From the NCBI GenBank assembly GCA_020049775.1, contig JAGVLO010000013.1, positions 37,256 to 101,255 on the forward strand: a stretch of 64,000 nt of DNA, read 5' to 3'. The DNA is from Alphaproteobacteria bacterium (GTDB taxonomy: Bacteria; Pseudomonadota; Alphaproteobacteria; Rickettsiales; SXRF01). Under the pieces are notes generated by a model, which made no database searches, was not told the origin of the DNA, and saw only the letters and a program-made list of their open reading frames with translations. This document shows, piece after piece, positions 3,486 to 60,587 of the stretch (its first letter is position 1; every line of letters begins with the position of its first letter). The translations under genes were made by a program, and so were the position numbers.

Positions 3486-4268
3486 ATGATCAGAGGAAAA
3501 AACGCCATCGTCACCGGCTCCACCAGCGGTATCGGGCTTGCCATTGCACATTGCCTGGCCGCAGAAGGCTGCAATATCCTGCTCAACGGTTTTGCCGATA
3601 AAGCAGCCATTGGCGCACTGGTCAATGAGTTCCAGCAAAAATACAAGGTACGCGCCGACTATTCCCCCGCCGACATGACCAAGCCCGCCGAGATTGCCGA
3701 AATGGTAGCCATGGGCGAGCGCGTACTGGGCAGCGTGGACATACTGGTCAATAATGCCGGTATCCAGTTCACCTCGCCACTAGACGAATTCCCCAACGAT
3801 AAATGGGACGCTATCATCGCCATCAATCTTTCGGCCTGCTTTCATTCTACCAAAGCGGTGCTTTCCGGCATGAAGAAGCGCGGCTTCGGACGCATTGTCA
3901 ATATCGCGTCGGTGCATGGGCTGGTCGGCTCCGCCAACAAGGGCGCCTATGTCGCCGCCAAGCACGGGCTGGTCGGCCTGACCAAAGTCACGGCACTGGA
4001 AAACGCCACCGCCGACATCACTTGCAACGCCATCTGCCCAGGCTGGGTGCATACACCGCTGGTGCAAAAGCAGATTGATGACAAGGCCGCTGCTGAAAAT
4101 ATTTCGCCCGAGGAGGCGACTAACCGCTTGCTCGGTGAAAAACAACCTAACCGCAAATTCATCCATGCCGAACAAATAGGCGCATTGATTGTGTTTTTGT
4201 GCGGCGATAACGGCAGCGCCATGACCGGCGAAATCATGACGGTCGATGGCGGCTGGACAGCACAATGA
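3486..4268 (+). CDS. bdhA: Short-chain dehydrogenase, probable D-3-hydroxybutyrate dehydrogenase
   Basis: TGSTSGIG cofactor motif, NNAG, and catalytic YVAAKHG (YxxxK). Length and overall pattern are typical of BdhA. Confidence 0.7.
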   Translation: MIRGKNAIVTGSTSGIGLAIAHCLAAEGCNILLNGFADKAAIGALVNEFQQKYKVRADYSPADMTKPAEIAEMVAMGERVLGSVDILVNNAGIQFTSPLDEFPNDKWDAIIAINLSACFHSTKAVLSGMKKRGFGRIVNIASVHGLVGSANKGAYVAAKHGLVGLTKVTALENATADITCNAICPGWVHTPLVQKQIDDKAAAENISPEEATNRLLGEKQPNRKFIHAEQIGALIVFLCGDNGSAMTGEIMTVDGGWTAQ

Positions 4269-5371
4269 CCCGCCCAAAAATGACACGGGCTAAAACCACG
4301 GCAAAAACAAAAGTTATCAACCTCGCACTGCAAGGTGGCGGCGCACATGGTGCTTACACATGGGGTGTACTCGACCGCCTTCTGGAAGAAGAAAATCTCG
4401 TTATCGAGGGTATCAGCGGCACTAGCGCCGGTGCCATGAATGCCGCCATGCTGATTAACGGCTACATGAAAAACGGCCGCGACGGTGCGCGCGACGAGTT
4501 GGCCCATTTCTGGAAGCGCATCAGCGAAACCGCTGCTTACAGCCCTCTGCATAAAAACGTGTTGGAGCGCATGCTCACCGGCTGGAACATGGACCATTCC
4601 CCCGCCTACCACATGTTCGACATGCTGAGCCGCATCTTCTCGCCGTACGAGTTCAACCCGCTGAATATCAATCCCATGAAATATATCCTCGAGGATATGA
4701 TTGACCATGATGCCATGCAGTCATGCAGCGTCATCAAGCTGTTTATTGCCGCCACCCATGTCGCTAGCGGACAGGCACGCATTTTCAAATGCGATGAAAT
4801 CACCACCGACGTATTGCTGGCCTCGGCCTGCATTCCTTTCATGTTTCAGGCGGTGCAAATAGAAGGCGATCATTACTGGGACGGGGGCTATATGGGCAAT
4901 CCCGCCATCTGGCCACTTATTTATAACTGCAACTCAAAAGACATCGTGCTGGTGCAGATCAACCCCATCCATGATGATCGCCTGCCAAAAACCGCAGGAG
5001 AAATCATCAACCGCTTAAACGAGATCTCGTTCAACTCCAGCCTGATTGCCGAAATGCGCGCCATCCATTTTGTCACGCGCCTGATTGAAGACGGCAACCT
5101 CGATGAAAAGAAATATAAAAAGCTCAATATGCACCTGATTTATTCCGCCAGTGAGATGCACCACCTCAACGCATCAAGCAAAATGAATGCTGACTGGGAT
5201 TTTTTCCAGCACCTGAAGGAAATCGGCCGCAGGGATGCAGAAAACTGGTTAAAGGCGCACTGGAATGACATTGGCAACAAATCCAGCCTTGATATACGGG
5301 ATAAATTCTTCGGTGGCCCTGCACGCGCCAAAGCAGATGGCAAAAACGCCAAGGCTAAAAAAGCAAAATAA
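4265..5371 (+). CDS. Patatin-like phospholipase
   Basis: GGGAHG glycine-rich motif, GTSAG nucleophile elbow, and DGGY catalytic Asp motif. Start overlaps the bdhA stop (ATGA). Confidence 0.8.
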   Translation: MTRPKMTRAKTTAKTKVINLALQGGGAHGAYTWGVLDRLLEEENLVIEGISGTSAGAMNAAMLINGYMKNGRDGARDELAHFWKRISETAAYSPLHKNVLERMLTGWNMDHSPAYHMFDMLSRIFSPYEFNPLNINPMKYILEDMIDHDAMQSCSVIKLFIAATHVASGQARIFKCDEITTDVLLASACIPFMFQAVQIEGDHYWDGGYMGNPAIWPLIYNCNSKDIVLVQINPIHDDRLPKTAGEIINRLNEISFNSSLIAEMRAIHFVTRLIEDGNLDEKKYKKLNMHLIYSASEMHHLNASSKMNADWDFFQHLKEIGRRDAENWLKAHWNDIGNKSSLDIRDKFFGGPARAKADGKNAKAKKAK

Positions 5372-5391
5372 AATTCTTATAGAGTGCTGGG

Positions 5392-5435
5392 AGAGAAAAG
5401 CGCAGCCGCCTGTCCCGGTTGGGACAGACGACTGC
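5392..5435 (-). terminator. Rho-independent terminator of cassette A1
   Basis: Minus-sense RNA is GCAGUCGUCUGUCCC-AACC-GGGACAGGCGGCUGC followed by GCUUUUCUCUCCC. The stem is 15 bp with two G-U wobbles that would be C-A mismatches on the plus strand. Confidence 0.8.
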
Positions 5436-5453
5436 TAGGTTGGTGTTGACTGA

Positions 5454-5822
5454 TCAATCGAGGTACGAGCCCGGGGCCTTCTTGAGGGGCACCGGGTTCG
5501 GCTTGTCCTCGACCTTCGTCGGGGCCGACTTGTTGGTCGGGGTCTTCTTACCCTTGCTGCTCATGGCGGCGAAGGTGAAGGTGACCACGATCACGATCAG
5601 CACCCACACCCAGAAGCGCTTCAGCAGCGGCTTCTTGGTGGTGGTGGGCTTGTCGGCCGGCTTGTTGTCGCCGCCGATGATCGTGATGATCGTGCCCTTG
5701 ACGAAGCTGGTCCCGTCGGGAACCATGACCTCGTCGCCGACCGCCTTGCTGCTCTCGACCTCCATCTCGATGATGGACTTGTCGGTCAGCTTGCGGACGA
5801 TCGCGTTCTTCTTGCTCGACAT
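5454..5822 (-). CDS. Orphan single-pass membrane protein A1 (122 aa), GC3-saturated
   Basis: ATG at 5822 lies 8 nt after SD GGAGG (5831-5835). 119 of 122 sense codons end in G/C by direct reading. Sequence: MSSKKNAIVRKLTDKSIIEMEVESS...FWVWVLIVIVVTFTFAAM, then a Lys/Pro-rich tail. N-terminus is homologous to A2. Confidence 0.8.
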   Translation of the reverse strand: MSSKKNAIVRKLTDKSIIEMEVESSKAVGDEVMVPDGTSFVKGTIITIIGGDNKPADKPTTTKKPLLKRFWVWVLIVIVVTFTFAAMSSKGKKTPTNKSAPTKVEDKPNPVPLKKAPGSYLD

Positions 5823-5980
5823 CGGAAACACCTCCGAAAAAGGCAGGTAAACCTTGCCTACTGGATACAGATCGGGCGAAATTGCCAGACCTGTGTAGGA
5901 AAGGCACTGCCTTCGTCTGATAGTCTCGCCGCACCTAGTGTATAGGGGGGAGAACAAATCACCCTTATTTTAGCACGGAA
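5823..5980 (-). promoter_or_regulatory. Conserved structured 5' leader, family A copy 1 (possible riboregulator plus promoter -10 TAAAAT)
   Basis: Aligns with 6472-6632 over about 150 nt. The long-range helix CGAAGGCAG (5907-5915) / CTGCCTTTTTCG (5835-5846) covaries with copy 2. An alternative hairpin GGCAAGGTTTACCTGCC followed by TTTTT lies just before the SD. Confidence 0.65.
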
Positions 5981-6078
5981 ATCTTTAGAAATTGTGACTG
6001 ATTTGTTAACTTTTATACGGTCATATGACAGCTATATGAATATAATGCGCTGTTTTTTATGATTTTATATGGGAAACG

Positions 6079-6123
6079 GAAAAAAGCGCAGCCATCTGTC
6101 CCGGTTAGGGGACAGACGGCCGC
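6079..6123 (-). terminator. Rho-independent terminator of cassette A2
   Basis: Minus-sense RNA is GCGGCCGUCUGUCCC-CUAACC-GGGACAGAUGGCUGC followed by GCUUUUUUCC. Differences from the A1 stem keep pairing through G-U or Watson-Crick exchange. Confidence 0.8.
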
Positions 6124-6150
6124 TAGGTTAGCGGTGTTGTTGTTCGGCGA

Positions 6151-6471
6151 TCACTTGAGGATCACGCCGAGCAGCATGAACACCCACGTCACGAGGATGA
6201 ACCCCGCGATGTAGTGGTACCAGCGCCACTTGGAGAAGTAGCCCTTGACGGACGCCCACTTCTCGCTGAGCTTGCTGGTGATGTTGCTGCCGTTGTCCGT
6301 CGTGCCGTCGTTGACGATCGCGAAGACCTTGACCTTCGTGAAGCGCCCCTCCTCGCCGTTGACGGGGAGGAAGTGGTCGTCGCCCGCCTTCAGGTTGGAG
6401 GGGACCTCCATCTCCTTCAGCGTGCCGTCGTCCATCTTCACGACCGCGGACACCATCTTGTTGCTCGACAT
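6151..6471 (-). CDS. Orphan tail-anchored membrane protein A2 (106 aa), GC3-saturated
   Basis: ATG at 6471 lies 8 nt after SD GGGAGG (6480-6485). Every one of the 106 sense codons ends in G/C. Sequence: MSSNKMVSAVVKMDDGTLKEMEVPSN...YIAGFILVTWVFMLLGVILK. Confidence 0.8.
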   Translation of the reverse strand: MSSNKMVSAVVKMDDGTLKEMEVPSNLKAGDDHFLPVNGEEGRFTKVKVFAIVNDGTTDNGSNITSKLSEKWASVKGYFSKWRWYHYIAGFILVTWVFMLLGVILK

Positions 6472-6632
6472 CGGAAACACCTCCCGATTAAGGCCTGGAT
6501 ACACCTTGCCTACAGAAACAGATCGGGCGAAATTGCCTGACCTGTGTAGGAAAGGCACCTGCCTTAATCTGATAGTCTCGCCGCACCTAGTGTATAGGGG
6601 GGAGAACAAATCACCCTAATTTTATCACGGGA
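6472..6632 (-). promoter_or_regulatory. Conserved structured 5' leader, family A copy 2
   Basis: Near-identical to 5823-5980 in its 5' two thirds. Perfect 9-bp long-range complement GATTAAGGC (6561-6569) / GCCTTAATC (6486-6494) abuts the SD. Confidence 0.65.
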
Positions 6633-6713
6633 AGCGTAAGCGTATTGTTAAGTATCTGTTAAAATTTATCTATTTTAGAGGGCAGCTGGCCAAACCAACC
6701 AATTGTTATTGCT

Positions 6714-7652
6714 TTATAAAAATATTCCAAAGAAGCAAAACAACAAGACATGCAGCACAAAAAACGCCCGCAATGCGCGGCCAACATGGGCATGCGTTAT
6801 CTTGGCTGTACCTGCGCCAATCCAGCCTTCATGTACGTAAGCCGACGACTGTCCACCGAGGCATAGACTCAATACGGACGCAGCGGCAAGGATAGATAAA
6901 TCTTGCGGGGATTCGCCAAATACACCGTTTTTTACCTGCTCTGCCGCGCTGTAAACATTGGCGGAAGGAAGCACGATTGCCACCACCAGCCACAGCCCCG
7001 CCGCAATACGCGAGGGAATATAATGCAATATATGGTGCAACTTGCGGCTGGCGCGTCCGAACGCCTCTTCGCTTTCCGTAGGCCGCACGAGTGTTTCCTG
7101 CAGCAGGTAAACGGTTTTGCTCAAACACAGGCCCGGCAAGCCAAACAGCACATAAAATAAAACCGGCGCTACAATTTTTTCTGAAAAATGCACCGCCAGC
7201 ATTTCCACGCCCGCACGCCCAAGCCCAAATTCATCAAGCAGCGGATGATGCTTCCACACTGTATATTCCAACGACTGGCGTGCAGCAGAGATATTGCCGT
7301 CCTTCAATCCACGGCGCAAGCCATTCACCGTATCCCATGTCGAACGGAAAGGCAGCAGGCAAGCCAGCAAACTCAGCTCGAGTATGGGCAGCGCCCCCGA
7401 CAATGCAAGCGTCAACAGCGAACCGACAATCAGCGCCGCCAATAATGCAAAAAGGGCGAATAGCCAGCCACGCGTTTCACGCTCCTGAACACTGCGGTTT
7501 TCACGGTTAAGTTTGCGCTCAAAAAGCCGCACCCACTGTGTAGGTATGCGGCCAATGCGCACTAGCCCCAGCGCCGCATAAAAGCGCCGTGGTCCGCCTA
7601 AGAAAGCGTTGAGCGCCAGTGCGCCCAGTATCAGCAGTATCCGATCACCCAT
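6714..7652 (-). CDS. cobD: CobD/CbiB-family membrane protein (adenosylcobinamide-phosphate synthase-like)
   Basis: Polytopic membrane protein with CobD/CbiB-like layout (N-terminal LNAFLGGP region, conserved charged loops). Start set to MGDRILL (7652) rather than ORF-track 7778. No other cob genes are nearby. Confidence 0.55.
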   Translation of the reverse strand: MGDRILLILGALALNAFLGGPRRFYAALGLVRIGRIPTQWVRLFERKLNRENRSVQERETRGWLFALFALLAALIVGSLLTLALSGALPILELSLLACLLPFRSTWDTVNGLRRGLKDGNISAARQSLEYTVWKHHPLLDEFGLGRAGVEMLAVHFSEKIVAPVLFYVLFGLPGLCLSKTVYLLQETLVRPTESEEAFGRASRKLHHILHYIPSRIAAGLWLVVAIVLPSANVYSAAEQVKNGVFGESPQDLSILAAASVLSLCLGGQSSAYVHEGWIGAGTAKITHAHVGRALRAFFVLHVLLFCFFGIFL

Positions 7653-7753
7653 GTCTTTGTACCGCTTTTGCCATATACCATTTTTCCTAAATTTCAGATG
7701 GCCCTTATTTCCGGATGATGCCACTATAACAGCCCGTAACCAATTGTCACATA

Positions 7754-8635
7754 GTGATGAACAACCCCTCACAGACACTCAGTGATCGCCTGTTGGCGCT
7801 TCCCTCCCTAAAGACCGTCATCAATGCGTTCGGGCTGGATGCGCGTAAATCGCTGGGGCAGCATTTCCTGCTCGATACACGCATCACCGACAAAATCGCC
7901 CGCTATGCCGGAGATCTGAGGGATTTCAACGTTATCGAAATCGGCCCTGGCCCGGGCGGATTGACACGCTCGCTGCTCGCTGCCGGATGCAGGCATCTGG
8001 TGGTGGTGGAAAAAGACGACCGCTGCCTCGCGGCACTAGCGCAAATAAAAGAAATCGCCGGCGACAGGATGGAAATAATCCACGGCGATGCCATGGAGTT
8101 TGACCCTGTAGCATCGGTCCCCGCGCCGCGCAAAATTATAGCCAACCTGCCCTATAATGTCGGCACACCACTTCTGGTGCGGTGGCTGGGCATGGTCGCA
8201 GAGCAGGGCAATAGCGCGTTCGATTCACTAACGCTGATGTTCCAGAAAGAAGTGGCCGAGCGCATTGTCGCCGAGCCAGGCAACAAGGATTTCGGCAGGC
8301 TGGCGGTTCTCTGCCAGTGGCTGTGCGAATGCCGCTATGATTTTGAGCTGCCGCCCGGCGCTTTCTCGCCGCCACCCAAGGTCAGCTCGGCGGTGGTGAC
8401 ACTAAGCCCAAGAAAAGAAAAACTGGTGGATGTATCGCAGGACGCGCTGGAGATGGTCATGGCCAAGGCCTTCGGCCAGCGGCGCAAAATGCTGCGCTCG
8501 GCACTTAAAGGGCTGGCTGTACCAGCTGACGTACTTCTGGAAAAATCGGGCATCGACGGCAGCAAGCGTGCCGAACAGCTGGACGTTATGACGCTGTGCA
8601 AGCTAGCGCAGGTGTATGAAAAAATAAGGCGCTAA
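7754..8635 (+). CDS. rsmA: 16S rRNA (adenine1518/1519-N6)-dimethyltransferase
   Basis: KSLGQHFL motif, SAM-binding VIEIGPGPGGLT, and NLPYNV motif. Confidence 0.9.
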   Translation: MMNNPSQTLSDRLLALPSLKTVINAFGLDARKSLGQHFLLDTRITDKIARYAGDLRDFNVIEIGPGPGGLTRSLLAAGCRHLVVVEKDDRCLAALAQIKEIAGDRMEIIHGDAMEFDPVASVPAPRKIIANLPYNVGTPLLVRWLGMVAEQGNSAFDSLTLMFQKEVAERIVAEPGNKDFGRLAVLCQWLCECRYDFELPPGAFSPPPKVSSAVVTLSPRKEKLVDVSQDALEMVMAKAFGQRRKMLRSALKGLAVPADVLLEKSGIDGSKRAEQLDVMTLCKLAQVYEKIRR

Positions 8636-20266: not shown

Positions 20267-21217
<951 letters not shown>

Positions 21218-21308
21218 TCATAGATCCTGTTTTAAAATGTTAAAAAATAGACGCAAAGCCTAACGCCTAAGGATTTACTAAGGGTTAATATTTGTTTGGC
21301 AAAAACAA

Positions 21309-22700
21309 TTAAGGCTCTGTGGTTACCTCTTTCATACCGAAATAGCGCTTAAAAGGCCCATTTTCCCAACTATTGGGGCGTGGCCCCAGTGGAAAATGAT
21401 AAACCATTGTTTTGTATGCAGGTATTTTTGCAACAACCACTGTGTCTTTGCCTTCGGCTTTAGCTGCTATGGTTTGCTCCATCTGTACAACTGAAATTTT
21501 TCTTTGTTCCGGCGCATTTTGATAGCTGTACCACAAATCATTAATGCCGCGGGCTATGGCGGGCGTAAGGGATACATATGTCATAAAGGCAAAAAGCGTT
21601 AGCAGCAGTATATTTGAAAATTTGACGCCGATGAATCTGGACAACGGATATCGTGCTGCCAGCCAGCTCACAAAGAAAAGCATTGATATAAAACATAAAA
21701 TACTGGGAAGCAGGATAGTCCTTGGCGATATCGCCCATCGAGCCCTGTATCCGTAAATAACCAAGAAAAATAACATGAAGCTTATCGCCAGCACGGTCAG
21801 CACATACAGCATAAACCGTCCATTGGTTTTGCAATATTTTACCGTGGGTGTTGCAACAAAATACGCACGCATGAATGCATACACGGTAATTTCAGCAAGG
21901 AATGGCAAAAACATAGCTTTATATGTTTGCATAGTGACAAGAGTTATATGCAGCATATCTGTGTGGCCACCAAGTCTTGCATAGTTACCGGGAGCAGCAA
22001 TATTGATTAGTAAACCTATAATATTGCCAATTAAGACCGCGCACATACGCCCGTAAAATAATTCGCGCCGCATATCTGTATTGGTAGCAAGATAAATGCC
22101 TATGCCGCCTATCATAACGAGGGGTTGTAGCTCATTATAACCCGCCACAAACGTAAAATAGGCTATTAAGCCGGCCCACAGATATCGCTCTTTTTTTACA
22201 TCACGCCCCTGGGTGCCAAATATAAAATATAGTCCCAAAAAAGCTAATGATGCGGGGACAACATACAAAATATTAAACGTATCGACGTAAAAGGCTTCTT
22301 CTTTGATATCTATGGGCAAAACAAGCATAAAAAAAGCGATGTCCGCCAATACGAATATCTTTGCCGTGTTACCCAAAGCTTTGTGTAAAAACAAAGCGAA
22401 TGAGATAAAGAACAGCGCTATGCTGGCAACAATAAATAAATTGGCGTGAAACGGAAATAAGAAAGACCCGTTTACCAGACTAAGGGTTAGGAGGCATGAG
22501 AATCTTCCAGAAAATGTCTGGTATGCAAAAACTAAGGTTCCGATATAGCCTTTGGTGTTGGTCCAGAAAGCATTATCCCAGTCATCCACTTGCGGGAAGG
22601 AGTAATACCCCAGAAAGGCATGAAGCAATAATATGGCTAAGCCCAACGCACAAACGCAAACAGCTAGCCTATTAGGGAGCTGACTAAATTTTTGTTGCAT
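21309..22700 (-). CDS. AT-rich polytopic membrane protein (463 aa), possible GT-C-type glycosyltransferase
   Basis: About 12 hydrophobic segments plus a roughly 70-aa C-terminal soluble tail. Codon usage is much more AT-rich than the flanking mdh and rho. Function is inferred from architecture only. Confidence 0.6.
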   Translation of the reverse strand: MQQKFSQLPNRLAVCVCALGLAILLLHAFLGYYSFPQVDDWDNAFWTNTKGYIGTLVFAYQTFSGRFSCLLTLSLVNGSFLFPFHANLFIVASIALFFISFALFLHKALGNTAKIFVLADIAFFMLVLPIDIKEEAFYVDTFNILYVVPASLAFLGLYFIFGTQGRDVKKERYLWAGLIAYFTFVAGYNELQPLVMIGGIGIYLATNTDMRRELFYGRMCAVLIGNIIGLLINIAAPGNYARLGGHTDMLHITLVTMQTYKAMFLPFLAEITVYAFMRAYFVATPTVKYCKTNGRFMLYVLTVLAISFMLFFLVIYGYRARWAISPRTILLPSILCFISMLFFVSWLAARYPLSRFIGVKFSNILLLTLFAFMTYVSLTPAIARGINDLWYSYQNAPEQRKISVVQMEQTIAAKAEGKDTVVVAKIPAYKTMVYHFPLGPRPNSWENGPFKRYFGMKEVTTEP

Positions 22701-22784
22701 TGCATAGCTCTGGAAATTTGAGGTTCAAGAGATGAATTAATACGCGAAAAATTAAGATGCGATTAATACTGGAATAAAATTAGC

Positions 22785-24152
22785 TCAGGAATTCATCTTA
22801 TCAAAGAACTCATCATTGGTCTTGGTTTCACCTAATTTCTCGAGCAGGAACTCGATACCGTCCATCGGACCCATGGGCGCAAGGATTTTGCGCATAACCC
22901 ACATCTTGGTAAGGGTTGCCTTATCGACCAGCAAGTCTTCCTTGCGCGTGCCGGACTTGGTGATGTCCATAGCCGGGTAGGTGCGCTTGTCGGCAAGCTT
23001 GCGGTCAAGGATGATTTCAGAGTTACCCGTACCTTTGAATTCTTCAAAGATCACTTCGTCCATGCGCGAACCTGTTTCGATAAGCGCCGTTGAGATGATG
23101 GTCAGGCTACCGCCATTTTCGATATTACGCGCCGCACCGAAGAAACGCTTAGGGCGCTGCAGGGCATTGGCATCCACACCGCCGGTGAGTACCTTGCCGG
23201 AGCTTGGGACTACCGTGTTATACGCACGCGCTAAGCGTGTAATTGAATCAAGCAGGATGACCACGTCTTTTTTATGTTCCACCAGTTTTTTAGCTTTTTC
23301 AATTACCATTTCCGCCAGCTGCACGTGACGGGTAGCCGGTTCATCAAAGGTAGAGCTGACAACTTCGCCCTTCACGGTGCGTTGCATGTCGGTCACTTCT
23401 TCAGGGCGCTCGTCAATCAGCAGCACGATGAGGAATGCGCCCGGATGATTGGCGGTGATGGAATGGGCGATATTCTGCAAAAATACGGTTTTACCGGTGC
23501 GCGGCGGCGCAACGATGAGTGCGCGCTGGCCAAAACCAAGCGGGGTGACAATATCAGCCACACGCATGGATAAATCTTTGCTTTGCTGCTGTTGCTGCCG
23601 ACGCCTGTGGGCATCTCTTGCGTTAGGCATGGCCGCAGGATTGACGGGTTTCTCTTCTGGCGGCTCCACGGTTTCGCTCATCTTGGAGCCGGTACCGGTA
23701 GGTTCGATTTCGAGTTTGATACGGCGCTCTGGATAGAGCGGCACGAGGTTGTCGAAATTGATGCGGTGGCGCACAGCCTCCGGATCATCATAGTTAATGG
23801 TGTTTACTTTCAGCAGGGCAAAATAGCGCTCTCCCTCTTTGGGTGCGCGGATTTCACCGGCTACGGTGTCACCCGTGCGCAAGCCGAAACGACGTATCTG
23901 GCTGGGGGAAACATAAATATCGTCGGGTCCGGCTAGATAATTGGCCAGCGGAGAACGCATAAAACCAAACCCGTCCTGTAATACCTCAATCACCCCTTTG
24001 CCGGTAATGGCTTCACCTTTTTCCGCCTGTTTCTTGAGAATGGCGAAAATCATTTCCTGTTTGAGCATAGTGCTGGCATTTTCAATTTCAGCAGTTTCGG
24101 CTAGCGCCAGCAGATCATCAGGGGTTTTTAGCTTAAGGTCTTGTAATTTCAT
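22785..24152 (-). CDS. rho: Transcription termination factor Rho (with extended inter-domain linker)
   Basis: N-terminal RNA-binding domain ([17 protein letters not shown]), Walker A APPRTGKT, and the remaining Rho motifs. About 36 extra residues relative to E. coli Rho lie between the domains. Confidence 0.95.
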
Positions 24153-24809: not shown

Positions 24810-25856
24810 TTATTCATTTACCACACAGGGGCATTCCGAAAAACTGCGCGGGCAGAAGCGTGTCTTGCCAGCAGGACAAATAGTGTCCGTGCGGTCAATG
24901 CCCCAGCATAAATTTGCCAGTGCATCGATAAAAAAACCTTCTGTGCATAGCGCTGGCACACGCCAGTAAGACGGTAGTTTTTTTTCCGCAGCCAGCTCAC
25001 GGTAATCAATATCAAGCTCCACCAGAGTTTCCGAATGCTCCGATACAAAAGCAATAGGCACAACAACAACAGGCACAGCATCTTTGCCCGCACGGTCAAT
25101 TTCATCCTCGGTGTAAGGGCCTATCCATTTCAGGCGGCCCACGCGGCTCTGGTAGCAGACCACATAATCAAGCTCGTCAATCGCCATCAAATCAACAATG
25201 GCTTTGGCCGTTTTTTCTATCTGCATCTGGTAAGGATCGCCTTTTTCAATTACTTTTTCCGGCAGACCGTGAGCAGAAAACAACACGCGCGGTTTTTGCG
25301 ATTCCGATGCTTTCCAATAGATTTCTTTAATCAGCTTTACATGCGATGCAATGAAGCTGTTATCCGTTGGATAACAGCAAATGGATGTTGTGGGGGTAGA
25401 CAGCCCTTCTTTGCGGCATGCTGCTTGCCAGTCATTGAATGAAGAGCCAGTCGTAGTAGTTGAAAACTGCGGATAAAGCGGAAGCAAAATAACATGGTCT
25501 GGTTCGTAGGCTTTTACTTTTTTTACTACAACACTGCTCATGGGATGCCAATATCGCATGGAAAAAAATACTTTGTATTCACCCTTGGATGAAATTTTGG
25601 CCGCAAGTAATTTTTGCAACGCTTCCGCCTGCGCATTGGTTTGTTCAAAAATAGGGGATTTGCCACCAAGCTTCTGATAAATGCCAATGGCTTTTTTTGC
25701 CCGTGTACTGGAAATTAATTTAGCCAGTAAATAGCGAAATGGGTTGGGAAGGCTGATAATTGCAGGGTCGTTGAATAAATTAAATAAAAACGGCTTTACT
25801 GCTTTTAGGCTATCCGGCCCGCCGAGATTGAATAATACAACCGCTGTCCTTGCCAT
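24810..25856 (-). CDS. hemH: Ferrochelatase (with C-terminal Cys cluster)
   Basis: VVLFNLGGP and SAHGLP motifs. The C-terminal CPAGKTRFCPRSFSECPC resembles the Cys-rich tail seen in [2Fe-2S] ferrochelatases. Start set at MARTAVV, 1 nt after the hemE stop. Confidence 0.9.
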   Translation of the reverse strand: MARTAVVLFNLGGPDSLKAVKPFLFNLFNDPAIISLPNPFRYLLAKLISSTRAKKAIGIYQKLGGKSPIFEQTNAQAEALQKLLAAKISSKGEYKVFFSMRYWHPMSSVVVKKVKAYEPDHVILLPLYPQFSTTTTGSSFNDWQAACRKEGLSTPTTSICCYPTDNSFIASHVKLIKEIYWKASESQKPRVLFSAHGLPEKVIEKGDPYQMQIEKTAKAIVDLMAIDELDYVVCYQSRVGRLKWIGPYTEDEIDRAGKDAVPVVVVPIAFVSEHSETLVELDIDYRELAAEKKLPSYWRVPALCTEGFFIDALANLCWGIDRTDTICPAGKTRFCPRSFSECPCVVNE

Positions 25857-25857
25857 A

Positions 25858-26895
25858 CTACGCGTAGCTCCTGATGAGTTCACTGAGCGCCAACACGTTA
25901 TCCGGCGGTGTTTCTGGTATCACGCCATGGCCTAGGTTGAAAATAAAACGCTTATCTCCAAATATGGATAATATACGCTTTGCCTCTTCCAGCATTGCAT
26001 TTTTGTCATAAGCCAGAAGCAGCTGGTCCAAATTTCCCTGCACTACTGTGTGTGGCTGCAAATGTTCCTTTGCCCATGACAGCGTAACAGAACCATCGAT
26101 ACTTACCGCGTCAACGCCTGTTTGTTTTACATAGTCAGTAATCTTACTTCCGCTCATGCGCGGAAATCCGATGACAGGAATAGATGGATACGCTTTTTTA
26201 ATGGCAGAAACTATTTTTTTTGTCGGTACAATAGACCAGTCGGAAAATTGTTTTTCTGATAATACACCGGCCCATGAGTCAAAAATCTGTATCACTTCTG
26301 CTCCCGCTTCTATCTGCGCGATAGCATGGCTAGATACCGCATCAGTCAGCATATCCACCAGCTTAATGAAAAATGCTGGATCTTTGTAAATCATAGTACG
26401 TGGTAATTGAAAATCCCTGCTACCCTTGCCTTCAATCATGTAGCAAGCCAGCGTCCACGGCGCACCGGCAAAACCTATCAGTGTTGTTTCAGCGGGTAAT
26501 GCTTTTCGTGTAAGACGTAACGCCTCATATACGGGAGAAAGATGCGAAGCAAAATTCTGGCGGCTTAGTAATTCCAGATCTTTGCTATTTTGTACCGGTT
26601 TTAGTATTGGCCCTTTTCCCTCCTCAAAACGAACATCCGCTCCTAGCGCATGCGGTATTACCAAAATGTCAGAAAATATAATCGCTGCGTCCATATTAAA
26701 ACGGCGTATAGGCTGCAACGTAACTTCACAAGCCTTATCCGGTGTATAACAAAAATCGAGAAAATTCTTCGCCTTTTTTCGTAATTCTTTATATTCCGGC
26801 AAATACCTTCCCGCCTGACGCATAAGCCAGAAGGGAGGTCTTCCTGAAAAGGAGGGAGTAAACGCAGACAGGAAATATTTTCCAGAATTATTCAT
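25858..26895 (-). CDS. hemE: Uroporphyrinogen decarboxylase
   Basis: PPFWLMRQAGRYLPEY signature and full-length similarity pattern. Confidence 0.95.
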   Translation of the reverse strand: MNNSGKYFLSAFTPSFSGRPPFWLMRQAGRYLPEYKELRKKAKNFLDFCYTPDKACEVTLQPIRRFNMDAAIIFSDILVIPHALGADVRFEEGKGPILKPVQNSKDLELLSRQNFASHLSPVYEALRLTRKALPAETTLIGFAGAPWTLACYMIEGKGSRDFQLPRTMIYKDPAFFIKLVDMLTDAVSSHAIAQIEAGAEVIQIFDSWAGVLSEKQFSDWSIVPTKKIVSAIKKAYPSIPVIGFPRMSGSKITDYVKQTGVDAVSIDGSVTLSWAKEHLQPHTVVQGNLDQLLLAYDKNAMLEEAKRILSIFGDKRFIFNLGHGVIPETPPDNVLALSELIRSYA

Positions 26896-27255
26896 ATCTA
26901 ATTAAATATAATTATAAGACTAATAGTAGTGGTAGTTGTAAGGTGAAGTTACGGGATTAAATAGTATCCCTTAGATATTGGCTATAGAAAACATACAGCC
27001 AGCAAAATGTGCATAAAAAGCGGATAACTATTCAAGATAATAAAATATATACATAAATACTACTGTTGCAAGAATTGCAAAGCGTGTATGAATGACGTTA
27101 TCCACATTTTTAACAGCGCGGCATTTAATCTGTACACCTGTGGATTCTTTGCACTGGAGAAAGCAAATAACTTTGCATAAAATAACCCCTGCTGGTTATG
27201 CCCATAACAGTTTACATGTTATGCACAGGTTTTTACAAAAGAGCGTTTTCTGGGT
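26896..27255. other. Probable chromosomal replication origin (oriC)
   Basis: 360-bp AT-rich gap between hemE and the RP001-like PDRP gene. DnaA-box matches: TTATCCACA 27098-27106 (9/9); TTATGCACA 27219-27227 and its complement at 27008-27016 (8/9); 27019-27027, 27139-27147 and 27196-27204 (7/9). AT-rich stretches lie at 26896-26935 and 27031-27065. Confidence 0.7.
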
Positions 27256-34091: not shown

Positions 34092-34135
34092 CTAAAAACA
34101 CAAAACTCTCCGCCTCGGAGAGGGGAGAGTTTTGT
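34092..34135 (-). terminator. Rho-independent terminator of cassette B1
   Basis: Minus-sense RNA is CAAAACUCUCCCCUC-UCC-GAGG(C)GGAGAGUUUUG followed by UGUUUUUAGGG. It is preceded by the conserved box CAACCAGGCCTTAAATGGCCC (34135-34158). Confidence 0.8.
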
Positions 34136-34165
34136 GGGCCATTTAAGGCCTGGTTGCTTCTGGTT

Positions 34166-34519
34166 TTAGCCGGGGTACACCACGGTGGACGCGTTCTCCG
34201 TGACCAACATGAACTCCACGCCCGACAGCAGCTCGATCGTCTCGATCGTCTCGATCAGGTCGAGCGGCATGGCGGCCATCAGCATCTCGGTGATGAGGCT
34301 GCTGACGGTGAACGTGGTGATGCGGGTACCCTCGTTGAGCAGCTCGACCACGCGGGGGGTACCCGGGGTGAGCGCCAGCAGGGGCATCTCGCGCGGCAAC
34401 AGGTTGTTGCCGCCCACCTCCAACAGCACGGGGCTGTGGCCCTCGTTCGTGAGGGTGATGGTGTTGTTCTCGTCGTTCGCGGACACGTTGATGCAGCCGG
34501 CCAGAATGAAGCGCGCCAT
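34166..34519 (-). CDS. Orphan soluble protein B1 (117 aa), GC3-saturated
   Basis: ATG at 34519 lies 5 nt after SD AGGAGA (34525-34530). 114 of 117 sense codons end in G/C. Sequence: MARFILAGCINVSANDENNTITLTNEGHSPVLLEV...MPLDLIETIETIELL... Homologous to B2. Confidence 0.8.
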   Translation of the reverse strand: MARFILAGCINVSANDENNTITLTNEGHSPVLLEVGGNNLLPREMPLLALTPGTPRVVELLNEGTRITTFTVSSLITEMLMAAMPLDLIETIETIELLSGVEFMLVTENASTVVYPG

Positions 34520-34613
34520 GGATTTCTCCTAATATACGGCGCCAAACGGGACACTCGCAGGGAACTGTTCCCTGTGAGCCTGTACCTCTCTTGTGAGGGG
34601 TAAAGTGACAAGA
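34520..34613 (-). promoter_or_regulatory. Structured 5' leader, family B copy 1
   Basis: Scaffold shared with copy 2: TCTTG..CTTTACC..CAGGCT-[21-nt hairpin]-AGTG..AGGAGAAAtCC. The hairpin CACAGGGAACAGTTCCCTGCG lies at 34556-34576. TATAAT lies just upstream (34616-34621 on the minus sense). Confidence 0.6.
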
Positions 34614-34693
34614 CTTATTATAAATTAACCAAAGGCAGTAAAAAACAGGATTTTTATGACAATATGTTGAATATGACGTTTCAACTATATGAT

Positions 34694-34735
34694 ATAAAAC
34701 ACAAAACTCCCCGCCTCGGAGAGGGGAGAGTTTTG
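34694..34735 (-). terminator. Rho-independent terminator of cassette B2
   Basis: Same hairpin as B1 with one A-U to G-U change (GGGGAG arm), followed by UGUUUUAUAUC. The conserved 3' box is at 34736-34759. Confidence 0.8.
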
Positions 34736-34765
34736 CGGACCATTTAAGGCCTGGTTGTCACGGTG

Positions 34766-35122
34766 TTAGTTGTCGTCGGTCGGCACGAGCTTGAGCGTCT
34801 GGTCGCCTTCCATCACGAACGTGTCCGCGATGCCCACGCTCACCAGTTCGGCGATGAGGCCGAGGCTGTCGAGCGGGATCTCGTCCACGGTCACGACGGG
34901 GAGCGTCATGAACTGGCCGACGACGATCCGGCACTCGGTCATGCTGCCCTTCGGCAACGCGACCGCCTGCCCGGGGAACAGGGTGAAGCTGTCCGAGGCC
35001 ACCTCCTCGCGGGGGTTTCCCGCGATGACCAGCTTCGTCGCTTTGCCCTCGTTCTTGAACGCGACCAGCTCGCCGTTCTCCGACACACTGACCACCACAC
35101 CACTGACGTTGAGGTTCTGCAC
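34766..35122 (-). CDS. Orphan soluble protein B2 (118 aa), GC3-rich; GTG start
   Basis: GTG at 35122 lies 6 nt after SD AGGAGA (35129-35134), at the same place as the B1 start. The composition shift begins here. Sequence: VQNLNVSGVVVSVSENGELVAFKNEGKATKLVIAG...IPLDSLGLIAELVSV... The ORF-track ATG at 35224 lies inside the leader. Confidence 0.7.
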   Translation of the reverse strand: MQNLNVSGVVVSVSENGELVAFKNEGKATKLVIAGNPREEVASDSFTLFPGQAVALPKGSMTECRIVVGQFMTLPVVTVDEIPLDSLGLIAELVSVGIADTFVMEGDQTLKLVPTDDN

Positions 35123-35217
35123 TGGTTTTCTCCTATGTGCAGGCCACACGATGCACTCGACAAGGAACATCCCCATCGAGCCTGGCTTTACAATACCCTG
35201 AGGTAAAGAAAGCAAGA
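35123..35217 (-). promoter_or_regulatory. Structured 5' leader, family B copy 2
   Basis: The hairpin CGATGGGGATGTTCCTTGTCG at 35158-35178 sits between the conserved CAGGCT and AGTG. Two fully compensatory pair changes relative to copy 1. Confidence 0.6.
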
Positions 35218-35322
35218 TTAGCACCTATTAATATACATTAATTATTGGGGTTGAAAAACGGCGTTATTTGAAGAATTCGTTACGAAAAGGTAAATAAAAT
35301 TATCGTAATACACTGATTTTAT

Positions 35323-56692: not shown

Positions 56693-56778
56693 GGAGGAGT
56701 GGCCGAGTGGTCAATGGCAGCAGACTGTAAATCTGCCCGCGCAAGCGTTCGCAGGTTCAAATCCTGCCTCCTCCACCA
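56693..56778 (+). tRNA. tRNA-Tyr (anticodon GTA) with long variable arm and encoded CCA
   Basis: Acceptor stem GGAGGAG/CTCCTCC, D-arm GTGGCCGAGTGGTCAATGGC, anticodon loop CTGTAAA, long variable arm, T-arm GCAGGTTCAAATCCTGC, and ACCA end. Confidence 0.9.
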
Positions 56779-56953: not shown

Positions 56954-58171
56954 ATGTTGCTTACTGTAAAGGCGATTCAGAACGCCAAAGCCAAAGACAA
57001 GCAATATAAGCTCAATGATGGCGCTGGGCTTTACTTACTGGTCACTCCCACTGGCAGTAAATGTTGGCGCTACAAGTATTATTGGGCAGGCAAAGAGAAG
57101 GTGTTGTCTCTGGGCATGTTCCAAGATGTAAGCCTTTCAGAAGCCCGTGAGCGCCGTGATGAGGCACGTAAGGTCAAAAATAGGGGTATTGACCCTTCTG
57201 ATATTAAACGTGAGCAAAAGCAGCAGATACTTGAAAGCCATGAGCATAATTTTGCCAGCATAGCCCGTGAATGGCATGAGCAGAAAAGCAGTAGATGGTC
57301 ACCTTATTACTCTAGGCAGGTCATGCAGCGGCTTGAAAATGACATTTTGCCTAAGATTGGCAATCTTCCTATTGCTAAAATTACAGCACCCGACATTTTG
57401 AGAATTGCCAGGGCTATTGAGGCACGCGATGCCATAGAGATTGCTCACCGTGCTGTCACCGTATGTAGCCAGATTTTCCAATATGCAATGATTTTGGGTA
57501 GAACAAAAGATAACCCTGCCCTAGCTTTACGCGGCGCACTAAAAACTGCAGAACGGAAGCATCGGCCACATCTGAGCCATAGCGAACTGCCAGATTTTTT
57601 TAGAACACTGGATGCTTATGACGGTGGTGTGCAGACTAAGCTCGCCATCCGCTTGCTGATACTAACCTTTGTTCGCCCCTCTGAATTGCGGTGCGCCAGA
57701 TGGTCAGAGATTGATTTTAAACGCAAGGAATGGCGTATTCCCCTAGAGCGCATGAAAATGCGTATCCCTCACATTGTACCCCTTTCCTGTCAGGCTATTG
57801 AGATATTGAAAACCCTGAAAAACTTAAATGGTGGCTGGGAATATGTCTTTCCTAGTATACAAGCGCCACGTAAATGTATGAGTAGTAATGCTATGCTCTT
57901 TGCCCTTTGGACTATGGGTTATAAAGGAAAAGCGACTGTACATGGCTTCCGTGGCACCGCTTCTACTATTCTTAATGAAAGTGGATTATTCGGCAGAGAC
58001 GTTATTGAGCGCCAACTTTCCCACCAAGAACGCAGCCGAGTCCGTGCTGCCTATGACCATGCTGAACATTTACCCGCCAGGCAGAAGATGATGCAGTGGT
58101 GGGCAGATTGTTTAGATGAGGCCGCAAAGTCGTCTAAAAAGAAAACAGTGCGCTTGGTCGCTCAGAAATAA
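56954..58171 (+). CDS. int: Tyrosine recombinase, P4-like integrase (DUF4102 N-terminal domain)
   Basis: N-terminal LTVKAIQNAKAKDKQYKLNDGAGLYLLVTPTGSKCWRYKY. Catalytic region contains ..RPSELRCARWSEI.., HGFRGTAST and the C-terminal AYDH. Confidence 0.9.
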   Translation: MLLTVKAIQNAKAKDKQYKLNDGAGLYLLVTPTGSKCWRYKYYWAGKEKVLSLGMFQDVSLSEARERRDEARKVKNRGIDPSDIKREQKQQILESHEHNFASIAREWHEQKSSRWSPYYSRQVMQRLENDILPKIGNLPIAKITAPDILRIARAIEARDAIEIAHRAVTVCSQIFQYAMILGRTKDNPALALRGALKTAERKHRPHLSHSELPDFFRTLDAYDGGVQTKLAIRLLILTFVRPSELRCARWSEIDFKRKEWRIPLERMKMRIPHIVPLSCQAIEILKTLKNLNGGWEYVFPSIQAPRKCMSSNAMLFALWTMGYKGKATVHGFRGTASTILNESGLFGRDVIERQLSHQERSRVRAAYDHAEHLPARQKMMQWWADCLDEAAKSSKKKTVRLVAQK

Positions 58172-58173
58172 AT

Positions 58174-58890
58174 ATGTCCAAACAAAACAACTATTCTGAC
58201 CAAGAATACATCGGCAAATTTCTGTCTATTGCAGGTAAAGATAATTGCAGTAAAACTGAGGCTGGCATTAAAAGAGCTTTTGGCTTTGGCCTTAAATATA
58301 AGCACTCTGGTGCCAGCCGCATACAGCGCAAAGCTTTTGAAGCGATTGGCTATTTGAAATACCAAGAGATAAAAAAGCAGATTTCAGTCAAATCGGATTA
58401 TGCAAATTTCATTAAAAGAGTGAAGTCACTAAAGACCGAGCTTGATAAGACATTGGAATACTCTGCTGACCAAGAAATTATCAAACTTGTGCAGCACCGC
58501 TCTCTGCCATTAAGCGAATTATCGTTATCTGATGATTCACGGCTCTTTGAGAGCATTTCAAAGGATATGCAGAAACTGTCATTGAGGTTGGCGATATTAT
58601 TAGATGACAGAAGGAGTGCCAAGGGAAAGCCCTCTATTGAAGAATTTTACGCATATATCTATGAAGTGGCCTGCTTATTCCAAGAATTATCACAAAATGA
58701 ATTTCGGGTTTATCGCCATGAAAGCCATGAACCTATAACGTCTGGCCATGCATTTGCCAATTTAGCCACTCATTATTTGAATAGCCTTGCAAGAGAAAGA
58801 AATTGTTCTGCAGGTTACTCTGATAAAAATATATTGAACGCATGTGAAGCTGCAAAAAAACGATTAAATACAAACGCTGGTAAATTGTAA
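58174..58890 (+). CDS. Island hypothetical protein (238 aa)
   Basis: Starts 2 nt after the int stop. AT-rich with no motif recognised. Confidence 0.5.
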   Translation: MSKQNNYSDQEYIGKFLSIAGKDNCSKTEAGIKRAFGFGLKYKHSGASRIQRKAFEAIGYLKYQEIKKQISVKSDYANFIKRVKSLKTELDKTLEYSADQEIIKLVQHRSLPLSELSLSDDSRLFESISKDMQKLSLRLAILLDDRRSAKGKPSIEEFYAYIYEVACLFQELSQNEFRVYRHESHEPITSGHAFANLATHYLNSLARERNCSAGYSDKNILNACEAAKKRLNTNAGKL

Positions 58891-58982
58891 GAAATTATCT
58901 TCATTTTATCTAGGTGGTTTCAATTTAGTTTGTCCCTGAATGTCCATAGGATGCCAGTGTAACCATTACACAAGGATGGACT

Positions 58983-59189
58983 ATGATACAGGGCATTTCA
59001 CAGGACAGTATTCTTCGCCTACCAAGAGTAAAAGAAATTACTGGTTTAAGCCGTTCCAGCATTTATATGGCCATAAAACAAGGCCGCTTCCCAAAACATA
59101 TTGCGCTTGATGGACGTAGTGTGGGGTGGCTGGAGTCTGAGGTCAGGCAGTGGCTTACTGACCGTATTAATGCAAGTCGTACAGCATAG
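58983..59189 (+). CDS. alpA: AlpA-family transcriptional regulator / excisionase-like HTH protein
   Basis: 68 aa. ILRLPRVKEITGLSRSSIYMAIKQGRFPKHIALDGRSVGWLESEVRQWL is the typical AlpA/MerR-like HTH. Confidence 0.8.
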   Translation: MIQGISQDSILRLPRVKEITGLSRSSIYMAIKQGRFPKHIALDGRSVGWLESEVRQWLTDRINASRTA

Positions 59190-59336
59190 ATAAAATTCTG
59201 AGCAAAGAAGTATTTCCCACTTCTTATTGCCAGCGCACCGTGGTGAGCTATAGAAGCAGTCCTTACGGGCTATCATTGATAGTTGATGTGGTTCTAGTAG
59301 CCTTGGCAAACGCTACATAAAAAAATTGCCTAGGGG

Positions 59337-60467
59337 TTGTGGGTGTCTTTACTTCACGTAGAAGCCTTCCGCACCGCTAATAGGCTGCATGTGGCTAATA
59401 GCATAGCTGATGCTCCCAGTGTTCTAAACACTAAATCAGAGAGAGATTGGAGTATAGCAGAATCAGGCTTTGCTCTAAGATTGATAAGCATTTTAGATTT
59501 TGATTATTTTGTAAAAGCACGTGTTGATTTTGGTAAGATTTCTCACGGGTTACCATTATTGATAGATACTTCTAAATCCCCTATCCACATAGTTTTAGAT
59601 AGTGATGGTTCTACGGTTGCAACAATTCTAAAACTATTTGAGACTGATTATTCTAGTATTACCAGTTTGATTAAGGATTTTGTTAGAACTAGTATTTTTA
59701 CACAAATAGCAAATTTGGTTCCAAGCAGTACTAGACAAGGTGCAGAAGCTTTTTTGAAGGCCATCCGCCGTCCGAGAGAGATTTTTGAAATAGATACATC
59801 TGACCTTGGAACGCTACAAGATATTTGGTCAAGTTATTTAGAAGGCACAATTACACTGAGCGAAGCAGCAAGCCAATCTGCACAGGCGGCGCAACAAAAT
59901 TTTCAAGTTGTGGATACAGCCTCGGCTAATACTATGGCTAATGTTTTGCCAGATATTCTAGAGAATGATAAAGTAATTCAAAATGGCTCACTTGAACAAT
60001 CATTGGAAGCCTTACCTGCCATCACAAGAATGGATAAAGAAAGCAACGCAAAGCTTTTGACTATTCCCGATACAGAGCCTGCCTTAAAAGGCTATAGATG
60101 CTTTATTGCAATGATTGACCGCATCAGAACTACAGAAGGGGAGTTCTTTCTTCAACCACATAAGACTGAAATTGTATGGGGTGGACAAAAGGCACTTTAT
60201 ATTTTTCAGCATCATTCACAAACATTCGGTCTTTATTATGAATTACAAGCAAATGAAGTGTTAGCTAATGAATCAGGAGGTGGAGCATTTCCAACTTGTA
60301 CTATTGTAATTAAAGATAAGATATACATCCCAGTACCTGACATTATTAGAAAAAGCTTCATTCCTGAAGCTAACAATAAGAAGCGCTTTGAAGTCAGGTC
60401 GCAGCTTTTATATCCTGATACCGAAGTAAATCAGGAAGACGAAAGTATAGCCAAGAAAGTAGGTTGA
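59337..60467 (+). CDS. Island hypothetical protein (about 375 aa)
   Basis: Long AT-rich ORF with no in-frame ATG near the 5' end. The start is TTG 59337 or GTG 59343, after AGGGG. No motif recognised. Confidence 0.5.
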   Translation: MWVSLLHVEAFRTANRLHVANSIADAPSVLNTKSERDWSIAESGFALRLISILDFDYFVKARVDFGKISHGLPLLIDTSKSPIHIVLDSDGSTVATILKLFETDYSSITSLIKDFVRTSIFTQIANLVPSSTRQGAEAFLKAIRRPREIFEIDTSDLGTLQDIWSSYLEGTITLSEAASQSAQAAQQNFQVVDTASANTMANVLPDILENDKVIQNGSLEQSLEALPAITRMDKESNAKLLTIPDTEPALKGYRCFIAMIDRIRTTEGEFFLQPHKTEIVWGGQKALYIFQHHSQTFGLYYELQANEVLANESGGGAFPTCTIVIKDKIYIPVPDIIRKSFIPEANNKKRFEVRSQLLYPDTEVNQEDESIAKKVG

Positions 60468-60587
60468 AAGTGGCCTATTAGCTAGCAGTGACAAAGTGCG
60501 GTAACGGGGTATTTTTCGGGGTATGCGGTTTTTCCACTTTTGGATTGTTTAGTCTATTCAATATGCTATTGAATCATTGTGGATTCA

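Follow-up and report, generated by a model that had tools for sequence, protein, structure and literature searches.

A structured 5' leader RNA motif preceding tandem orphan membrane-protein genes in a Rickettsiales bacterium

The window analysed here is a 64,000-nucleotide (nt) stretch of a Rickettsiales genome (lineage SXRF01; assembly GCA_020049775.1, contig JAGVLO010000013.1, positions 37,256 to 101,255), in which two tandem gene cassettes on the minus strand, A1 (5393-5975) and A2 (6079-6627), each carry a leader of about 140 nt between promoter and start codon. This leader is a previously unclassified structured 5' leader RNA motif of narrow distribution. It is non-coding, keeps the same orientation, is conserved above the neutral level and adopts a structure supported by covariation, which together are the features of a generic structured cis-regulatory 5' leader, and we consider it very likely that the RNA is both structured and functional. 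With moderate confidence we further propose that the leader acts in cis, setting mRNA stability and gating translation initiation without a small-molecule ligand. An original prediction, made from the DNA letters of the same region, had described a conserved non-coding element with a covarying long-range helix and had likened it to a riboswitch or attenuator; the description of a non-coding, conserved and structured element holds, while the proposed mechanism is not supported.

Fold and covariation of the leader

Consensus folding with RNAalifold of the four full-length copies yields four helices. P0 is a 5'-proximal hairpin (consensus UGAU..GU.CUCCCCCC / GG.G.GG.GAGAC.AUCA), P1 (AAGGCAG / CUGCCUU) encloses P2 (GCCUU.CCUAC.ACAGGUC.GGC, loop, GCC.GAUCUGU, bulge, GUAGG.AAGG), and P3 (UCGGA / UCCGA) surrounds the Shine-Dalgarno (SD) sequence. 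P2 comprises about 25 base pairs (bp) and together with P1 forms an irregular hairpin of about 30 bp. P3 has 5-7 bp; its 5' arm contains the GGA of the SD, its loop contains the remaining SD bases and the spacer, and its 3' arm ends with the A of the AUG, in the closing pair. Folded singly, the four full-length copies reach minimum free energies of -53 to -59 kcal/mol with z-scores of -3.0 to -4.1, and the P1/P2/P3 architecture recurs in all six distinct copies available when each is folded independently (W_A1 and W_A2 from the window; L006, L007, L009 and L010 from relatives). The SD is predicted to be 65-88% paired in all copies, with an unpaired probability of 0.12-0.36 (0.13 in A2).

A structural alignment of these copies, curated by hand with each row verified against its source sequence, contains 50 pairs, and 260 of its 274 cells (95%) are canonical. 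Two-sided compensatory changes occur at five pairs distributed over P0, P1 and P3: two in the inner stem of P0 in L010, where CC to UG in the 5' strand is answered by GG to CA in the 3' strand, two in the outer part of P1 (G.U to U-A at -1:+1; G-C, U-A and A-U at -2:+2), and one in P3 (C-G to G-C in L009 and L010). L010 in addition has one base fewer than W_A2 on each strand of P1 (AUUAAGGC/GCCUUAAU against AUAAGGC/GCCUUAU). The long-range helix of the original prediction, which corresponds to P1, thus gains further independent covariation from the new homologues, including this paired one-base deletion, and the small CGGA/UCCG hairpin that it placed around the SD-AUG spacer, here P3, is supported by the C-G to G-C flip. 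Changes within P2 are either repairs of mismatches (U x C to U-A in L009, L007 and L010) or G-C to G.U. When the 3' partners were slid by 1-3 columns as a control, only 36-47% of the cells were canonical and 0-1 pairs were compensatory, and none of 2000 within-pair shuffles reached the observed canonical count. Variable columns are likewise unevenly distributed, being 17 of the 99 paired as against 28 of the 51 unpaired (Fisher p = 4e-6).

The copies fall into two P1 allele types, W_A1, L006 and L007 (Type I) and W_A2, L009 and L010 (Type II), which differ in a coordinated manner on both P1 strands, some 70 nt apart; the extra G in GGCAGG co-occurs with an extra C in UAUCC. These coordinated differences indicate that the changes specific to A2 represent an old, structure-preserving allele and not recent noise. 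The complementary strings on which the helix had first been built are present on the minus strand, CGAAGGCAG (5907-5915) and CTGCCTTTTTCG (5835-5846) in A1 and GATTAAGGC (6561-6569) and GCCTTAATC (6486-6494) in A2, as are the single-nucleotide G indel in GGCA(G)GTGCC and the single T/A substitution in the central block, GGTC(T/A)GGC, that had been reported with them.

Variation between the copies is found in the P0 loop, the P0/P1 junction, the internal bulge of P2 and its apical loop, of which the versions AAUUUC, AACUAC, GCGU, ACAUC and AUGUC occur; the 5' arm of P2, about 30 nt long, shows no change across copies. The invariance of the P2 stem sequence, some 30 nt per arm and palindrome-like, could also be taken as conservation at the level of DNA, the transcribed region then containing operators for a repressor or activator, and the conserved elements upstream of the cassettes do suggest protein-DNA regulation at this locus. 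The G.U pairs and the strand-specific change of G.U to U-A nevertheless fit RNA and not DNA, and the conserved stretch of about 140 nt is much longer than an operator, so that we regard this explanation as most improbable.

A riboswitch or terminator-attenuator, as the original prediction envisaged, would require a ligand or factor to shift the leader between P1/P2 and a hairpin of GGCAAGG with CCUGCC followed by a U-tract, with control of readthrough or of access to the SD. P1 would suit this role as a long-range helix that ends beside the SD and covaries, and no known family matches the leader. All six copies permit the alternative hairpin, and in L009 a C to A change in its 5' arm is matched by G to U in its 3' arm; in A1 its string GGCAAGGTTTACCTGCC and the TTTTT after it lie on the minus strand as reported (Table 1). 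However, this hairpin is about 30 kcal/mol weaker than P1/P2 (-4.7 to -5.9 versus -36 to -42 kcal/mol), and P2, which emerges first during transcription, already occupies the 5' arm of this hairpin. The tail that follows it reads UUUUU in W_A1 and L006, UUUCU in L007, UUAAU in W_A2 and L009 and UUAUU in L010; the U-tract is therefore intact in only two copies, degraded in a third and absent from the other three, a scan for terminators flags nothing inside the leader, and the terminator-like fold was rejected as a conserved feature. Furthermore, the leader has no multi-helix junction and no conserved unpaired nucleotides, its loops, bulges and junction varying in sequence and length while its stems hold, which is the reverse of the conservation pattern of an aptamer, and the gene downstream encodes an orphan membrane protein and not a metabolic or transport function. 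A small-molecule riboswitch is thus unlikely, and the same holds for a riboswitch or terminator-attenuator mechanism taken as a whole.

Comparison with Rfam agrees with the original prediction, which could match the element to no riboswitch or leader class. Searched with Rfam 15 at the gathering threshold, the whole window returned a tRNA as its sole match. A permissive scan of positions 5350-6750 gave a best E-value of 2.6, on a terminator, and the only permissive match touching a leader (6466-6508) scored 12.7 bits against a gathering score of 45 (E = 5.4).

Transcription start, conservation and distribution

The block CCGTG(C/A)TAAAAT, at which the first alignment of the two leaders began, is indeed conserved, and its most fitting interpretation is that of an extended -10 promoter, TGnTAAAAT, which relatives carry as TGnTAGAAT. 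A promoter scan of the locus returned no -35/-10 consensus pair and found no -35. From the position of the extended -10, the transcript would probably begin near GUGAUUUG, at about 5958-5961 in A1 and 6610-6613 in A2, and P0 begins 0-3 nt from this predicted start.

Indels of 1 and 2 nt separate the copies inside nucleotide-conserved stretches of the leader and shift the frame between them. The frame that is open from a TTG to the ATG in both window copies meets a TGA in L006, and an in-frame upstream ATG is restricted to L006 and L001. The leader is therefore non-coding, and its conservation is not that of a protein, as had been argued from the indel between A1 and A2. The frame-shifting indels and the L006 stop codon rule out a coding N-terminal extension or an upstream open reading frame (ORF) in the leader; with these broken frames, the upstream ATG confined as above and no conserved upstream ORF, a leader-peptide attenuator was likewise rejected. 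A cis-antisense small RNA was also discarded, its sole candidate -10 sitting in the variable loop of P2 and its T-run not being conserved.

The two cassettes lie in the gap between a patatin-like phospholipase gene (4265-5371, plus strand) and a cobD/cbiB gene (6714-7778, minus strand), which provide a neutral baseline. Between the window and the genome represented by contigs L001 and L006 the leader is 77-86% identical with gaps counted, whereas in the same genome pair the cobD and patatin genes agree at only 53-54% of their four-fold degenerate sites, from which purifying selection on the leader follows. At the protein level, identity is 88-90% for the flanking CobD and patatin and only about 27-41% for the A proteins. 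The same disparity is seen at greater distance: the L009 and L010 proteins are only about 30-40% identical to A1, yet their leaders keep GCGGCGAGACUAUCAGA..AAGGCAGGUGCCUUUCCUACACAGGUCUGGCA unchanged.

Within genomes a different process is apparent. Paralogous leaders match at all 92 nt compared in L006 and at all 67 in L007, the proteins P0012 and P0013 have their first approximately 60 residues in common, and this sharing of leaders and N-terminal coding halves points to ongoing gene conversion at the locus. The identity of A1 and A2 within one genome is partly due to gene conversion and does not by itself prove selection; the comparison between genomes does. The P0010 gene on contig L001 and the P0011 gene on contig L006 are identical over 150 nt from the ATG, these contigs coming from two samples with near-identical genomes. 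Such identities, together with the breaking of several assemblies at the locus, would also be expected if the conserved flanks served mainly as recombination substrates, providing the homology arms needed to convert genes or exchange cassettes, with any RNA function limited to promoter and SD. Substitutions in the leader are non-random, however, and avoid stems or compensate one another, the P1 allele types differ coordinately on strands about 70 nt apart, and across species the leader stays far above neutral conservation while the ORF between the flanks diverges; we consider this explanation very unlikely.

The motif has few known members. A1, A2 and B1 (a protein of an unrelated family in the same window, see below) are singleton clusters in a collection of 15 billion proteins. 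A profile built from A1, A2 and the L001 homologue retrieved only six family members, all from the same syntenic locus in metagenome-assembled relatives, and an exhaustive HMMER search added two more distant ones, P0015 and P0019. The leader precedes every member with readable upstream DNA, namely the window copies, L001, L006, L007, L008/L009 and L010. With a covariance model these copies score 78-171 bits, and the second copies of L006 and L007, which are truncated at the 3' side, score 49-75 bits; over the 64-kb window the model (R1) detects the two known copies and no third. This enlarged set confirms that P1 holds and covaries beyond the two copies from which it was proposed. A 51-nt leader core occurs twice in the window at up to one mismatch and in none of 100 shuffles. 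Scans for exact patterns of the leader cores gave no match in genome contigs and subsequently one chance match in Longispora (L004) without flanking similarity, one chance match with dissimilar flanks in metagenome contigs (L003), and none in viral contigs; blastn of the whole locus against phage genomes found no match, and a literature search nothing relevant. Among frequent k-mers, no motif resembling an uptake signal emerged. Contigs L001, L002, L005, L006 and L007 and two contigs of JGI sample 3300059473 end inside or beside cassettes, and L001 may be a collapsed two-cassette assembly.

Cassettes, encoded proteins and the wider window

Each cassette consists of an upstream segment with the promoter, the leader, the SD GGAGG, 8 nt, the ATG, the ORF and a 3' untranslated region (UTR) with a terminator (Table 1). 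A1 and A2 align from the promoter through ATG+11 and again at the terminator, a 15-bp G+C-rich hairpin followed by a T-run that is conserved between them; in between, the ORFs diverge, starting right after ATGTCGAGCAA. The conserved sequences upstream of the two promoters (6000-6029 and 6644-6675) are likely transcription-factor binding sites, the latter possibly a transcription-factor site or an UP element.

Table 1. Features of the two A cassettes, with positions in the window; TM, transmembrane.
Feature	Position	Strand	Remarks
Upstream element of A2, AAATAGATAAATTTTAACAGATACTTAACAAT	6644-6675	-	Identical over 32 nt in window, L006 and L007; adjacent intergenic DNA diverged
Extended -10 promoter of A2, TGATAAAAT	6619-6627	-	TGnTA(A/G)AAT in all full-length copies
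A2 hairpin P0 (UGAU..UCUCCCCCC / GGUGCGGCGAGA..AUCA)	6570-6613	-	RNAalifold; two compensatory pairs in L010; 3-nt indel in loop
A2 P1/P2 element	6486-6569	-	-37.1 kcal/mol
A2 P1	GAUUAAGGC 6561-6569 with GCCUUAAUC 6486-6494	-	Closes long irregular hairpin P2
A2 hairpin P3 (UCGGGAG GUG UUUCCGA)	6471-6487	-	Encloses SD GGAGG 6480-6484 and A of AUG (6469-6471)
ORF A2	6151-6471	-	106 amino acids; N-terminal beta domain and C-terminal TM helix; all third codon positions G/C
A2 3' UTR motif AACACC (6133-6138) and intrinsic terminator	6079-6138	-	Stem 6088-6123, then T-run
Upstream conserved region of A1	6000-6029	-	Palindrome GTCATATGAC 6020-6029 and AAAGTTAACAAATC 6000-6013; kept in second, partial cassettes of L006 and L007
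Extended -10 promoter of A1, TGCTAAAAT	5967-5975	-	TGnTAAAAT
A1 hairpin P0	5918-5961	-	RNAalifold, single-sequence fold, curated alignment
A1 P1/P2 element	5839-5914	-	-36.8 kcal/mol versus -5.9 for alternative hairpin
A1 P1	GAAGGCAG 5907-5914 with CUGCCUUU 5839-5846	-	
A1 P2	within 5839-5914	-	UGCCUUUCCUACACAGGUC..GGC, loop, GCC..GAUCUG..GUAGGCAAGG
A1 alternative hairpin (original prediction)	5842-5858	-	U5 tract 5837-5841
A1 hairpin P3 (UCGGAG GUGU UUCCGA)	5822-5837	-	Encloses SD GGAGG 5831-5835 and A of AUG (5820-5822)
ORF A1	5454-5822	-	122 amino acids; predicted four-strand beta domain, TM helix (residues 66-88) and disordered tail; A/T at the third position in 3 of 122 codons
A1 3' UTR motif AACACC (5442-5447) and intrinsic terminator	5393-5447	-	Stem 5402-5435, then T-run

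The A and B proteins have no Pfam match above threshold, and their PHROG matches are confined to the TM or linker stretch. An AlphaFold2 model of A1 presents a small beta domain and a TM helix, and Foldseek found no match to it in the PDB at E < 0.3. Weak profile matches connect the N-terminal beta domain of the A family to repeats of very large cadherin-like or Big_9 surface proteins (P0014, P0016, P0017 and P0020), which hints at an Ig-like or adhesin-type half-domain.

A single-pass membrane protein encoded in tandem cassettes, behind a long structured leader with a paired SD, brings to mind the mRNA of a type I toxin or an exclusion protein silenced by its own UTRs: the leader would sequester the SD, and a 3' UTR motif, AACACC, would fold back onto GGUGUU, or a trans-encoded small RNA would take its place. 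AACACC is found in every available 3' UTR and complements the GGUGUU located in the P3 loop and SD-AUG spacer; in L008/L009 the leader carries GAUGUU and the 3' UTR AACAUC (L008, about 540-545), a compensatory pair, and both UTRs are conserved around a fast-evolving ORF. A contact between the 5' and 3' UTRs may thus exist. The complementarity extends over just 6 nt, however, was noticed post hoc and involves a single covariation event. Type I toxins usually have fewer than 60 amino acids, and the proteins here have 105-152 with a folded N-terminal domain (four beta strands and one TM helix in all); the SD is strong (GGAGG), and the leader and its surroundings showed no conserved antisense promoter or terminator. 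The silenced-toxin explanation is consequently rather unlikely in our estimation. RNAduplex predictions between leader and 3' UTR were set aside, as they yielded long duplexes involving the terminator stem that were spurious, so that the complementarity stands as an observation at the level of the motif.

Codon usage in these ORFs is extreme. The G+C content at third codon positions (GC3) is near 97-100% in the A1 and A2 ORFs and 0.87-0.97 in the B1 and B2 ORFs, only 13 of the 462 codons of the four end in A or T, and GAG outnumbers GAA by 29:2, as against 154:335 in host genes, which have a GC3 of about 0.6 and prefer GAA (69%). First and second positions are ordinary (0.47 and 0.43), and a GC3 near saturation beside ordinary GC1 and GC2 does not look like the signature of transfer from a high-GC donor; selection at the mRNA level, translational selection or GC-biased gene conversion could be the cause. 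Long antisense ORFs (for example 5419-5850, plus strand) are a by-product of the G/C third positions.

The B cassettes are an unrelated tandem pair at 34095-35230 on the minus strand, comprising B1 (34166-34519) and B2 (34766-35119, GTG start). Their terminator regions are 95% identical over 62 nt (34095-34156 against 34696-34757), and their leaders are partly conserved and contain three hairpins. In the last of these the start codon is paired to an upstream arm, whose sequence changes from copy to copy along with the first codons. Both pairs might exemplify an undescribed kind of cassette, a toxin or exclusion module in which ultra-conserved structured UTRs would act as a 5'-3' fold-back or trans-RNA lock around a hypervariable membrane-protein ORF with nearly all third positions G/C, gene conversion homogenising the UTRs and driving GC3 to saturation, and the B family would then be its second instance; we put this forward as a doubtful but conceivable possibility. 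Elsewhere in the window, a tRNA-Tyr (56693-56778) is followed by a 405-amino-acid ORF and a low-GC stretch (56954-60500; GC 0.38-0.45, GC3 down to 0.27), and this region looks like an island integrated at the tRNA. Two further low-GC segments (21200-22800 and 25200-27200; GC 0.36-0.44 against a background of about 53%) may represent horizontally acquired genes.

Proposed role of the leader and comparison with known systems

In the reading we favour, in which the leader acts in cis as RNA on stability and translation, it folds into three modules, P0, P1 closing P2, and P3. P0 and P1/P2 would protect or organise the mRNA 5' end in the manner of ompA-type stabilisers, or would offer a site for processing or binding. 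In mRNAs such as that of ompA, a hairpin right at the 5' end gives protection against decay that depends on this end; the conserved TGnTA(A/G)AAT box, although it lacks a -35, would place the 5' end 0-3 nt before P0, where the hairpin could shield the mRNA in the same way. P3 would throttle translation initiation until it is opened. The P2 stem, invariant in sequence while every loop varies, suggests a trans partner as opposed to a small-molecule ligand, and P2 may accordingly be recognised sequence-specifically by a protein, a double-strand-specific nuclease or an RNA. That the unrelated B cassettes of the same window likewise have a three-hairpin leader favours this reading.

Several points weigh on the other side. 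Only six distinct sequences from about five lineages are available, two of them truncated at the 5' end, and the covariation is drawn from a hand-curated alignment in which 28 of the 2000 within-pair shuffles also reach five compensatory pairs. P2 displays no two-sided covariation, its pairing being supported by folding energy and mismatch repairs. The transcription start is placed solely by the match to TGnTAnAAT, no -35 having been found. P3 is weak, and the predicted accessibility of the SD is constant between 25 and 45 C. Finally, gene conversion keeps the copies of one genome identical, and recombination between species could inflate the apparent conservation.

The leader would add an unclassified structured leader RNA to the existing catalogue, one that is cleanly built and whose natural variants resemble a compensatory-mutation experiment. 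It stands in an unusual context, the UTRs being much more conserved than the neutral sites of neighbouring housekeeping genes around a very fast-evolving ORF. Understanding it also offers the most direct way to find out when these orphan proteins are produced, and may show why two unrelated families in one genome have the same cassette design.

Among known systems, riboswitches with a P1-coupled expression platform share with the leader a long-range closing helix beside the SD and, in some copies, an alternative local hairpin with a U-run; they differ in that here no Rfam family matches, no junction or loop nucleotides are conserved, the terminator feature is not conserved and the gene context is atypical. 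The hok/sok (fbi/tac) and AapA1/IsoA1 systems resemble the cassettes in their small membrane protein, tandem copies, long structured leader, occluded SD and a 3' UTR that may pair with the initiation region, whereas the protein described here is two to three times larger with a folded soluble domain, an antisense RNA gene was not found and the complementarity amounts to 6 nt. RNA thermometers such as ROSE and fourU similarly have a short imperfect hairpin in which a U/C-rich arm immediately preceding the AUG pairs with the SD, but the leader has no Rfam match to ROSE or FourU and a flat predicted accessibility of the SD over the temperatures given above, and a thermometer would leave the large upstream hairpins unexplained. 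Leader hairpins processed by RNase III (the rnc and pnp leaders, phage T7 R1.1 and the lambda N leader) offer a parallel to P1 and P2, with a near-continuous helix of about 30 bp, small internal loops at fixed positions and a conserved stem sequence, and cleavage of this kind is a candidate activity here. The stabilising 5' UTR of Escherichia coli ompA lacks sequence similarity to the leader, its SD region is single-stranded or weakly paired where the SD here lies inside a hairpin of its own, P3, and the invariant P2 sequence suggests a specific recognition peculiar to the present motif. Nevertheless, the ompA leader is likewise about 130-140 nt long, begins with a hairpin at its extreme 5' end followed by a second large hairpin and then the SD region, lies ahead of a gene for a membrane protein, and affects both stability and translation in cis, as we propose for the leader of the A cassettes.

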